Assembly (NCBI RefSeq): GCF_004010195.1
Contig: NC_057713.1
Location: 29,147,319-29,211,318, forward strand
DNA: 64,000 nt
Source: Chiloscyllium plagiosum
Lineage: Eukaryota
Direction: 5' to 3'
Shown here one piece after another: positions 5,301 through 9,140 of the stretch (position 1 is the first letter of the stretch; every line of letters begins with the position of its first letter). Both the position numbers and the translations under genes were made by a program. The notes under the pieces were generated by a model. That model was not told the DNA's origin and did not search any database. It saw only the letters and a program-made list of their open reading frames with translations.

Positions 5301-6594
5301 GTCTTATTTGAATGAAAATATTGCATACATGATATGTGCTGAGTTATATACTCTCAAATGGAATAATTTAGAAGATACTGTAATGGACCTGAATTTCTCA
5401 GATTCAAGGAAGAAGAATACTGCCCCTGGCCAGAACAACTCTTGTGCTGCTTATGCAGCTTTGAAAACATCCTGCATTCTTGCTAATGGCGAGTGAAGGC
5501 CCAGAGGTAGTGTTTCTATGCTGCAGAAGAGTAGCAGGCTGCCCTGACAGTCAGCCCAAGCCATAAATCAGAAACATTCACAGGGTTAGACTTTAGATTG
5601 CAGTAGAATTAAACATAGATGGGAAGAAACGCAATACTTTGAAGCTGGGGGTGGAGGTAGCGATGACAGATATTGAAATCCAACAAGGAGCTGAATTGTG
5701 GTTTCACACAGATGCGTATTCCATGTTTTATGGTGCCATCAGTAAAATGTCAACCTAACCAGTTGGATTAAAAAAGACAGAACTTCTCTCAAGTAGGAGA
5801 TACAGTGATTGATCGTTCCACAATTATCTGGACACAAGCAGTAATTTGTTTTCATTTGGGATAATAAGAACAAGAGGAGGCCAATTTAGCTTCTTCAGTA
5901 TGTTCCACCATACAATGAGATTGTAGCTAAACGATGACCTAACTTCACCTCAAATCATTGGAAAAACTGACAGGATAATGAAGAGAATTGTGTGTGAGTG
6001 ATTAATTGTGGGGAATAAAAGGTAGAATTAGATATGGCACCCATAACTGGGGGAGTAGTAGAAGAACATGAATAATTTAGAAAACTGTTCTTTCTTATTC
6101 ACTCATGGGACATGAACATTAAGGCCGGGCCAGTATTTACTACCTGTCTCTAGTTGCCCTTGAGAAGGGGTGATAAGTTGCCTTCTTGAACCACTGCAGT
6201 CCACTTGATGTAGGTAAACCCATTTCTCTAACTCATAAGCCTAACAATCTTAGATTTAAAATGAACAATTATCATGAAAAGAGTTTAAAATTTCTGTCAC
6301 CCTGTGCATGTAGAGAGTTTCCTAACTTCACTCCTCAACTGCCTGCTTCCAATTTTCAGGTTACATCCCCCAACCTAGACTCTCTTACTAGCAGAAATTG
6401 ATTCTCTATATCTACTGTTCTCCTCACACTTTGAGGAGATTCCTCAAAGGAAATTGAAATTCCAATCAAAGTTTCTAAATCTGAGGGACTATAATCCTAT
6501 TGTGTGTATTCCTCCTGCAATTTAAATTCTGGAGTCTGGATAGCATTCTGGCTAATCTACATTGCACTTACTTCATGACTGATCTATCCTGCTT

Positions 6595-6705
6595 AACTCT
6601 GCAGTAGCAGTAGTCCTACCATTGGACCAGAGACCTGGCTTCATGAACCACCTTCCCTGGAGGTATCTGATAACATGCCTGAACAGGTTGATTAAAGATA
6701 TTCAT
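6595..6705 (+). mobile_element. Short (~110 bp) tRNA-like SINE; related copies at ~16826-16935 (+), ~42280-42365 (-), ~46479-46590 (+)
   Basis: Shared pattern GTGGTAGTGTCCCTAC...GGTTCAAGTC...TAATAACAT...GATTA among the four loci. Confidence 0.5.
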
Positions 6706-6831
6706 CCTGACTAAGGTGTGGAGACTAGGACTGGAGCTGAAAGTCTGTTGCTGGAAAAGCGCAGCAGATCAGGCAGCATCCAAGGAGCAGGAGAATTGAT
6801 GTTTCGGGCATGAGCCCTTCTTCAGGAATGA

Positions 6832-6897
6832 GGTGGTTCAGTGGTAGAATTCTTGCCTGCCACGCGGGAGGCCCGGGTTCGATTCCCAGCCAATGCA
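6832..6897 (+). tRNA. tRNA-Gly(GCC) copy 1, missing the first 5 nt (pseudogene)
   Basis: GGTGGTTCAGTGGTAGAATTCTTGCCTGCCACGCGGGAGGCCCGGGTTCGATTCCCAGCCAATGCA; two CpG-type changes from the conserved vertebrate tRNA-Gly-GCC. Confidence 0.9.
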
Positions 6898-6920
6898 TTG
6901 TAGCATCCTTTATTTCAGGT

Positions 6921-6991
6921 GCATTGGTGGTTCAGTGGTAGAATTCTTGCCTGCCACACGGGAGGCCCGGGTTCGATTCCCAGTCAATGCA
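6921..6991 (+). tRNA. tRNA-Gly(GCC) copy 2, full length 71 nt, probably pseudogene
   Basis: GCATTGG...TCAATGCA, anticodon GCC at 6953-6955, intact A and B boxes, four substitutions in stems, no encoded CCA. Confidence 0.92.
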
Positions 6992-7889
6992 TTGTAGCAT
7001 CCTTTATTTCAGCCTCAATCCTGAAGAAGGGCTCATGCTCGAAACATCGATTCACCTGCTCCTTAGATGCTGCCTGACATGCTGCGCTTTTCCAGCAACA
7101 CATTTTCAGCTCTGATCTCCAGCATCTGCAGTCCTCACTTTCTCCGAGAAGGCTAGGATTGGACCCAGTTCTCCAGGTGTAATCAAACCAGAGTTTTGTA
7201 TTAATGATTAGCCAGAGCAATTGGATGAACACCCCTGCTTCTCTCTAAAATAGTGTCATAAGATATTTTTTACTTGAAATCTGGAGGAAATAGTTTATTC
7301 CAATATTCAGACCCAGCGATGGAAGGACTTTCACTGTTGCTACCTTTTTAAGTTTTATTTTGCTCAAAAACGTAAGTTCTATATGCTGGAAAATGTTAAA
7401 ATATATTAAGACGATTAAAACTATTCAAATAAAATAGCCCTCTGTTGAAAGAAAGCTGAACAATACAACACTAAAACAGCAACAATTTGCAATTATACTG
7501 TGGTGTTAACACAGAAAAGGTTTCCCTTCACTCCTTTGAAGAGATGTAAGAAAAACTTGGACAGTGAACTAATGAAGAGATATTATCAGGAAACAATCAA
7601 CTTCTGGCAATGTTCTAAAGATAAATAGGAATACGGGGAGGCTAAGTCCTTAGGAAGGGTGACCATAGCATTTGATGGTTCACAACTAGCAAAAATAGGC
7701 TGAATGGATCTGAGTGATACACATGGGCTCAACTTAGAAGAACAGAAAGTTTACTAGGGAGCTTTGTAATGTTGGAGTCCTTGGCTCCATTGCATTATAA
7801 TTCATCTCAGGAGGGTTCCTCTGGATCAAAACTATGCATCTGCTCATTCAGTTTGCTTTTTTTTAATTGTAGAGTTCAGGTGCCTCAAC

Positions 7890-9140
7890 CGTGTTATCAA
7901 GCAGCATCTGCTCAGCAATAGCCTGCTCAGTGATGCCCAGTTTGGCTTTCGCCAAGGCCACTCAACTCCTGACCTCATTACAGCCTTGGTTCAAAAACGG
8001 ACAAAAGAGCTGAATTCTAAAGGCGAGGTGAGAGTCACAGTCCTTGACATCAAGGCTGCATTCAACCAAGTGTGGCATCAAGGACCCCTCACAAAACTGG
8101 AAACAATGGATTTTGGGGCAAACTCTCTGCTGGTTGGAGTCATACCTGGCACTCAGAAAGATGGTCATGGTTGTTGAAGATCAATTATCTCAGGTGCAGG
8201 AGATCTCTTAAGGAGTACCCTCATGGTAATATCGTAGGCCCAACCATCTCAGTTGCTTCATCAATGACTTTCCCTCCATTATAACGTCAGAAGTGAGGGA
8301 TGTTTGCTGATGATTGCACAATGTTTAGCACAATTCACGAATCCTCAGATACAGAAGCAGCCCATATTCAAATGCAATAAGATCTGGACAATATCCAGGC
8401 TTGAGCTGACAAGTGGTATTTAGTAATATTCGTGCCACACAAATGCCAGGCAATGACCATCTTTAATAGGAGATAATGTAACCATCTTCCCTTGATATTC
8501 AATAGTGTTATCATTACCGAAACCCCACTATCCACATCCTTGAGGTTATGATTGACCAAAAACTTAGCTAGGCTTGCCACATAAACTGTGGCTACAAAAG
8601 TGTGTCACAGGCTGGAAATACTGTGGAGAGTAACTCATCTTCCGACTCCCCAAAGCCTGTTCATAATCGACAAGGTACATGCCAGAAATATGATGTAATA
8701 CTCCCCACCTGCCTGGATGGGTACAGCTCCAACAACTCTCAAGAAGCTTGACACCATCCAGGACAAAGCAGCCCACTTGATTGGCACCGCACTCACAAGC
8801 GTTCACTCCCTCCACCATCACTGTTCAGTAGCAGCAGTGTGTACTATCTATTAGATGCACTGCAGAAAGATCCTTCAACAGCACTTTCCAAACTCACAAT
8901 CATTTTGATCCAGAAGGACAAGGGCAGTAGATACATGGGAACATCACCACCTGCAAGTTCCCCTTCAAGCGACTGACCATCCCGACTTGGAAATATATCA
9001 CCGCTCCTTCACTGTCGCTGGGTCAAAATCCTGGAATTCCATTCCATTGTGGGTCAACCTACAGCAGGTGGACTGCAGCAGTTCAAGCAGCTCAAATGCA
9101 TAGTCAGCAGCGTCCATATCCCACGAGTGAATAAAAAAGA
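7890..9140 (+). mobile_element. CR1-group LINE (LDIKAAF-type), RT domain to 3' tail, frameshifted
   Basis: GEVRVTVLDIKAAFNQVWHQG, GVPHG, MFADD and KKLDTIQDKA motifs; tail CCCACGAGTGAATAAAAAA. Confidence 0.9.

Follow-up and report, generated by a model that had tools for sequence, protein, structure and literature searches.

Short interspersed elements (SINEs) that derive from tRNA and end in a LINE tail carry, ahead of a retroelement end, the A and B boxes of the tRNA. Insertions of Penelope-like elements (PLEs) have been described as carrying an inverted, 5'-truncated copy and a tail of 30–40 bp on one end (PMC8557442; PMC3846280). In vitro, both target strands are cut and extended, and the tail is bounded by two start sites of reverse transcription (PMC11167929); how PLEs form their inverted ends and acquire host sequence is described as still open (PMC8557442; PMC11167929). 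In Adineta vaga, cargo framed by PLE pseudo-LTRs (pLTRs), including non-coding pieces between solo pLTRs, is mobilised in trans (PMC3846280); the main text of that paper contains no occurrence of 'tRNA'. Pre-tRNA is a known template of reverse transcription, L1-made pre-tRNA retropseudogenes are known, and an origin of SINEs by template switching has been discussed (PMC4476161 and work cited there). Cargo between PLE repeats and small-RNA/LINE chimeras have both been published; for a pre-tRNA, or for any tRNA or SINE cargo, between PLE arms, we found no report in the portions of article text covered by our literature search.

The unit analysed here is located at G000:C4:29154040-29154481 in an assembly of 3.56 Gb and 101,977 contigs. 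Positions below are those of the window, the whole 64,000-nt stretch of DNA under analysis, in which no N bases occur between 5000 and 9000; q numbers are positions along the PLE arm. The features are as follows.

6725–6735, plus strand: left target-site duplication (TSD), 11 nt, its last 2 nt overlapping the arm end; 1 mismatch to 7153–7163
6734–6833, minus strand: inverted, tail-less PLE pseudo-LTR arm, q100 to q1; 91% complementary to 7013–7112
6832–6897, plus strand: tRNA-Gly(GCC) copy 1, tRNA positions 6–71; Rfam RF00005, 35.5 bits
6898–6916, plus strand: 3' trailer of the source tRNA gene, with an interrupted T run at its end; found after tRNA-Gly at 4 other sites
6917–6920, plus strand: pre-tRNA 5' leader AGGT; likeness of retrocopy L033 to L052 and L039 starts 4 nt before the tRNA
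6921–6991, plus strand: tRNA-Gly(GCC) copy 2, full length; ARAGORN, and Rfam at 47.3 bits
6992–7012, plus strand: second trailer and AG, identical to 6898–6918
7013–7150, plus strand: sense PLE pseudo-LTR arm, q1–q138, with its tail at 7113–7150; about 95% identity to many genomic copies
7021–7048, plus strand: minimal hammerhead motif, read from the sequence, with its core at 7021–7044
7153–7163, plus strand: right TSD, pairing with 6725–6735

The original prediction, made from the sequence alone, had given this same succession of TSD, inverted arm, partial tRNA, full tRNA, sense arm with a hammerhead-like core and TSD, and all of it was borne out, as were a left tRNA-Gly(GCC) without its first 5 nt, a spacer without a run of four T and tRNAs running in the direction of the right, tailed arm. 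The TSD can be read as 11 nt with 1 mismatch or as 13 nt with 2 mismatches, and TSDs read by eye at other copies of the same PLE measure about 11–16 nt. Both arms end at q1, being 91% complementary over 100 nt, and the tail of the right arm is 38 nt long. The tandem has a period of 94 nt, with 87 nt common to both units and 2 differences between them. A and B boxes start at 6834 and 6876 in copy 1 and at 6928 and 6970 in copy 2; ARAGORN calls only the full copy, as tRNA-Gly(GCC), and Rfam RF00005 calls both. The GG at 6832–6833 is common to the left arm and the tRNA, so that the microhomology suggested for the left junction stands. The CAG suggested for the other junction does not: in the body-bearing copies most like this arm, the arm is preceded by CACTTT, CACTCT or CATTTT, and CAG was found only in other variants.

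The unit is unique in the assembly. The 189-nt cargo returned 106 candidates, and among the 40 scored the only full-length match was the cargo itself. Tandem tRNA-Gly copies with a spacer of 5–35 nt gave one hit, this unit; two patterns combining a B box with the hammerhead core gave 20 and 9 hits, with this junction once in each, and a pattern combining the arm with an A box gave 94 hits, again with this junction once. These patterns were exact, so that strongly diverged members could escape them, and some arm pairs enclose N gaps.

We then compared the arms with the rest of the genome. The whole unit as query gave 4519 candidates, and the scored matches other than the unit itself cover the arms only. 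The body upstream of the arm in copy L022 encodes a GIY-YIG domain (PF01541, E 1.3e-4, at the curated cut-off), and the element is therefore an endonuclease-bearing (EN+) PLE. Among the 30 loci of this search, at least 13 are head-to-head pairs of a short and a long arm, this unit included, and their middles consist of PLE body, a palindrome of the body, an N gap (L006 and L007) or 0–18 nt. Head-to-head arms with a tail are the ordinary form of this abundant PLE. Judged by its two arms, the 38-nt tail on one of them, the TSD and the GIY-YIG relative, the unit is assigned to the class of EN+ PLE insertions.

Both arms reach q1 with 0–30 nt between them at 268 loci. Examination by eye of the first 50 listed revealed 6 pairs that abut exactly, 11 that stop at q1 on both sides and 6 that hold a recopied piece of arm or tail of 7–20 nt. 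A survey of arm ends covered 631,707 bases (60 arbitrary 10-kb stretches and the window) and was blind to ends inside the hammerhead core. It found 52 cores: 32 stop at q1–q8, 1 at q-3, 17 run at least 40 nt into the body and 2 reach N gaps. When the unit's own 2 arms and 3 probable bodies of other subfamilies were discounted, 27 of 50 stopped at q1–q8. From this pile-up of short-copy ends, we infer that the 5' end of the PLE RNA lies at q1–q8. That the G at 7012 is a reverse-transcribed cap G is not claimed; a G precedes 15 of 35 short 5' ends, many of these being TSDs, fold-backs or bodies of other subfamilies. At two loci (L134 and L136), a solo arm with TSD has identical flanks on both sides, and an identical 41-nt match occurs on 9 chromosomes (these two loci and 7 more hits of the arm and A box pattern); the identical flanks indicate that a larger repeat carrying a PLE stub was amplified recently.

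To characterise the cargo, we searched the assembly for an 18-nt motif spanning the tRNA end and the trailer. It gave 6 hits, 2 in this unit and one each on C2, C15, C16 and C32, and no PLE arm adjoins the latter four. The C2 copy (L036, G000:C2 near 61.10 Mb) starts at the tRNA, extends about 95 nt past it, has a 20-nt TSD, lacks a PLE arm and is 87% like the native tRNA-Gly cluster over 154 nt; on these features it is a read-through pre-tRNA-Gly retrocopy. In retrocopy L033, likeness to the cluster contigs L052 and L039 begins 4 nt before the tRNA. Since both retrocopies match the native cluster beyond the tRNA, 6898–6916 is the 3' trailer and AGGT the 5' leader. The predicted 23-nt spacer, repeated over 21 nt, was thus right in its lengths and wrong in its identity: it consists of the trailer and the 4-nt leader of a tRNA gene, and the cargo is a pre-tRNA. 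AGGT or GGT stands directly 5' of several dispersed tRNA-Gly copies, and the A of AGGT may belong to the trailer or to the leader. As far as their sequences can tell, the cargo ends match the RNA ends of other dispersed copies, with the leader starting at -4 and the trailer ending near the T run, and this suggests a nuclear precursor RNA as template, acquired at the point where the two cDNAs end.

In the copies on C15, C16 and C32, tRNA and trailer are joined to a SINE that has a tRNA head and a (TAATC)n end. tRNA-Gly with its trailer stands directly 5' of a SINE at L032, L035, L041, L050, L053 and L033, and is joined to what appears by eye to be a CR1-type LINE piece at L047 and L056. Judged from these joints, pre-tRNA chimeras are recurrent in this genome.

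A native tRNA-Gly(GCC) cluster is located at G000:C37:27.607-27.631 Mb (L238–L241). It comprises 4 intact genes and 1 decayed copy, the genes lying 1.9–9.0 kb apart, and related flanks are also present on small unplaced contigs. The exact trailer of this unit was found in 0 of the 5 cluster copies, so its source gene is a relative of the cluster that was not found in the assembly. No tRNA donor was detected within the window or 10 kb upstream. The tRNAs were delivered to this site and are not native to it, as had been proposed; this conclusion rests on the TSD, on how the arms are arranged and on native genes that lie kilobases apart, and not on the CR1 element that had been invoked for it.

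The unit was said to interrupt an old CR1, which we did not confirm, as the repeat on the left ends near 6705. Window positions 6600–6705 hold an old dispersed repeat of about 105 nt, with copies 72–81% alike and an A-rich end just left of the insertion. None of 14 genomic copies of the left-flank repeat continues convincingly into the right flank, and 7151–7900 had no match in 1.11 Mb of sequence from other loci. An empty site was not found by way of the copies of the left-flank repeat, because the repeat stops about 20 nt short of the TSD. By eye, 7886–8500 resembles a decayed reverse transcriptase region of a CR1-type LINE; it is separated from the unit by about 700 nt and does not run on into it. 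Part of window 6000–8000 occurs in 18 public sequencing runs, 8 of them with at least half the words; these were left out of the evidence.

The unit has decayed since its insertion. The hammerhead motif at 7021–7048, for whose helix and pair numbering we partly presume the usual convention, contains the core and a 4-bp helix II; a G to A change at 7046 removes the predicted 15.2–16.2 pair, and the same change is present in the left-arm hammerhead. This is column q34, at which both arms deviate from the majority, as do 15% of 126 copies. Features and numbering of the minimal motif otherwise follow PMC4209133. In unit 1, the 5' acceptor strand is missing and a C-A pair breaks the T stem; in unit 2, C-A pairs break the anticodon stem and the T stem, one in each. 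Copy 2 differs by 4 changes from the cluster gene L043, which has no broken pair. A functional tRNA gene was considered and rejected, as both cloverleafs are broken. The two A and two B boxes are intact, and a promoter is predicted from them. T4 runs lie upstream of the arm ends (about q100 and q133–138), one at 7088 (q76) and one at 7103 (q91), so that a Pol III transcript would probably fall short of the inferred copy-start sites (PMC11167929). The arms carry 5 private non-CpG changes and differ from each other at 9 of 100 positions. Two CpG changes are common to both tRNA units, which under a simple model favours, by a likelihood ratio of about 9, copying or homogenisation at a time when some decay had already occurred. 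A variant of the source gene behind these two changes was disfavoured, since L032, L036, L050 and L053 keep the CpGs or are changed on the other strand. The locus is a dead single-copy fossil, whose tRNAs and hammerheads have decayed since insertion.

We favour, with somewhat better than even confidence, a PLE insertion in which a pre-tRNA-Gly was probably captured by a template jump and probably doubled by recopying of one molecule through microhomologies. The capture as a one-off event, the second of two options in the original prediction, is supported and very probable; given such a capture, it is probable that the doubling used a single molecule. By analogy with the in vitro reactions (PMC11167929), the endonuclease would nick both strands 11–13 nt apart and each end would prime a cDNA, one at the start of the tail and the other about 38 nt further in. 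Both cDNAs would stop at q1, inside the q1–q8 zone where short copies pile up and where the RNA end presumably lies. One cDNA would jump onto the trailer end of a pre-tRNA-Gly and copy to the 4-nt leader. The other strand would pair by GG at tRNA positions 6–7, copy through the trailer and AG, slip back by AG onto the leader end of the captured pre-tRNA and copy again. Pairing by GG and slipping back by AG would account for the left tRNA starting 5 nt late, for trailers that end alike and for the AG occurring twice. A later DNA rearrangement could also have produced these two slips. Both tRNAs and both hammerheads decayed afterwards.

Plain duplication of a truncated unit is excluded, because the left unit lacks 7 nt that are present in the right unit. 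Recopying accounts for the presence, in both units, of one rare trailer variant with an identical end and AG. Recopied pieces at the central joint of other copies are 7–25 nt long, as against 86 nt here. Doubling at insertion leaves the shared CpG changes in need of a later duplication, homogenisation or a coincidence of about 1 in 20; the duplication may have occurred at insertion or later. The locus is a probable template-switch chimera.

An unlikely course keeps the one-off capture and assigns the tandem to the enzyme, which would either have made two end-to-end jumps, onto two pre-tRNAs, or have copied one 94-nt pre-tRNA, circularised or not, a second time. The internal joint runs exactly from trailer end to leader start; double jumps have been described for LINEs (PMC2104539; PMC4476161), and the six loci with tRNA-Gly and trailer 5' of SINEs indicate that serial joints between Pol III RNAs do occur. 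Two molecules, however, would have to come from the same gene variant and share the same 3' end, although the trailer is present in only 4 other places, and a circle gives no reason for entry within 2 nt of the joint. Neither version accounts for the shared CpG changes without later homogenisation.

Other loci with cargo between PLE arms bear on whether the pre-tRNA arrived with the arms or after them. Among the 20 loci with B box and hammerhead core, 3 besides this unit enclose foreign cargo between two arms within a TSD, and among the first 30 of the 94 loci with arm and A box, 4 besides this unit do so. These are listed below.

L068, 1426–1683 (G000:C1 near 100.83 Mb): 3' half of a tRNA and a trailer-like piece, another PLE subfamily, TSD of 18 nt
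L085: SINE head, both arms at q1, TSD of 14 nt
L080: about 225 nt of mixed cargo, TSD of 15 nt
L131, L135 and L140: full SINE between arms
L145: 3'-truncated SINE head between arms

The cargo of L068, which from its T-arm we take to be tRNA-Asn, comprises the T-arm, the 3' acceptor strand and the trailer-like piece, with a 7-mer present three times at the left joint; Rfam gave no tRNA match at six cargo loci, L068 included. Two further loci (L128 and L139) have one clear arm and a full SINE inside a 14-nt TSD, and the first 25 of a further 37 loci contained 5 in which two arms and a TSD bound foreign cargo (L218, L225, L226, L235 and L236), in one of which (L236) an inverted SINE head is recopied at the left joint. 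SINE heads without a 3' tail lie between or before PLE arms, inside one TSD of 7–16 nt, at L085, L145, L121 and L069; ordinary SINE insertion gives none of these. Full-length SINEs with one or two PLE arms and a TSD of 10–19 nt are present at L131, L140, L218, L225, L226, L235, L236, L128, L139 and L233, and these may be captures or later nesting; L135 looks like a nested later insertion. As proof of capture, the full-length SINEs were set aside, since later insertion is expected to place about 25 of them, over the whole genome, no more than 5 nt from a pair centre; the figure uses about 146,000 SINE tails (extrapolated from 26) and about 62,000 short pairs (extrapolated from 11). The evidence for capture rests on 2 tRNA-type and 2 tail-less SINE-head cases. 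A U6 3' end motif gave 0 hits next to a hammerhead core in the assembly, and 6 hits of an A-box pattern of a size unable to match this locus contained no two-arm tRNA cargo. A solo arm with TSD lies beside a tRNA-like 5' fragment at L095.

It is distinctly improbable that a bare arm pair came first and that a pre-tRNA retrocopy made by other machinery, or a break patch at the hairpin centre, later landed in its exact centre. Arm pairs are abundant (about 62,000 by the above extrapolation from 11), 6 of the first 50 loci listed above abut at q1, a 1-nt duplication could have left the G that precedes the right arm, and pre-tRNA-Gly retroposes without arms, as at L036. The cargo also has fewer non-CpG changes than the arms (1 in 150 against 5 in 170), but the difference is not significant (P = 0.22). 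Against a later landing, chance would bring only 0.017 of every 100 dispersed tRNA-Gly copies to within 5 nt of a pair centre, and here the fit is exact on both sides. No normal-length TSD flanks the cargo, L068 provides a second tRNA-like case, and ordinary later SINE insertion does not account for the 3'-truncated SINE heads at L085 and L145.

Very improbable, too, are a local misassembly and a DNA filler whose donor was a native tandem array of 94-bp tRNA units that the assembly lacks. No exact source gene was found in the assembly, and cluster-like pieces lie on small contigs; but the native C37 genes are 1.9–9.0 kb apart and no other short tandem was found, the cargo ends coincide with RNA ends, and differences at 2 sites between the units and at 9 of 100 positions between the arms are unlike a duplicated read. 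Scarcely credible is the other option of the original prediction, a non-autonomous PLE family, SINE-like or driven by Pol III, that would start from a tandem tRNA promoter and end in a Penelope tail: intact A and B boxes in both units in the direction of the tailed arm, read-through at L036 and L033, which marks the source gene's trailer T run as leaky, and a fragmented assembly with N gaps between arms at L006 and L007 speak for it, but T4 runs precede the arm ends, the 5 private non-CpG arm changes make the copy old enough for daughters to assemble apart, and both junctions and the 94-nt tandem occur once in 3.56 Gb, the very outcome that the prediction had named as refuting a family, so that this reading fails at the level of the assembly.

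A wider generalisation, which we put forward tentatively and consider doubtful, is that end-to-end jumps, off the front of the element's short RNA and onto nuclear Pol III transcripts (pre-tRNAs and SINE RNAs), are routine for the Penelope reverse transcriptase, and that this enzyme can round the same small RNA twice. If true, PLEs would be an unrecognised trans-mobiliser of vertebrate Pol III RNAs and a workshop for tRNA-headed, Penelope-tailed proto-SINEs, and the locus would record a repeat-addition-like step by a relative of telomerase. Its value is mechanistic, as recognisable RNA ends, leader and trailer, mark what joined what. It also carries a warning for annotation: ARAGORN and Rfam label such copies tRNA genes.

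Compared with known systems, the unit is most like EN+ PLE insertions (PMC8557442, PMC3846280, PMC11167929) in its head-to-head arms, tail on one arm, TSD, minimal hammerhead motif (here short of one predicted pair) and GIY-YIG domain in related copies; it differs from them in having no PLE body between the arms, the middle being a doubled pre-tRNA. With the pLTR-framed host sequences of Adineta vaga (PMC3846280) it shares foreign sequence between pLTRs inside one TSD. The cargo described there consists of intron-containing genes or unnamed DNA, whereas here a Pol III precursor, doubled and ending as an RNA would, takes its place. Animal non-LTR retrozymes (bioRxiv 10.64898/2026.07.22.740005) are likewise non-autonomous, PLE-related, hammerhead-bearing and tandem, but the two hammerheads here are on opposite strands and face away from each other. 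A retrozyme was rejected as an identity for this unit, as its 94-nt tandem unit is tRNA, trailer and leader, without a hammerhead. Like tRNA-derived SINEs, the unit places A and B boxes ahead of a retroelement end; unlike them, it is single-copy, has T4 runs before the arm ends and carries an inverted arm upstream. Finally, small-RNA/LINE chimeras (U6/L1 and others, PMC4476161; tripartite, PMC2104539) also place a small RNA 5' of a retroelement 3' end, in the same orientation and inside one TSD; in this unit, the driver is a PLE and not L1, L2 or RTE, an inverted arm closes the 5' side, and the same RNA is present twice.
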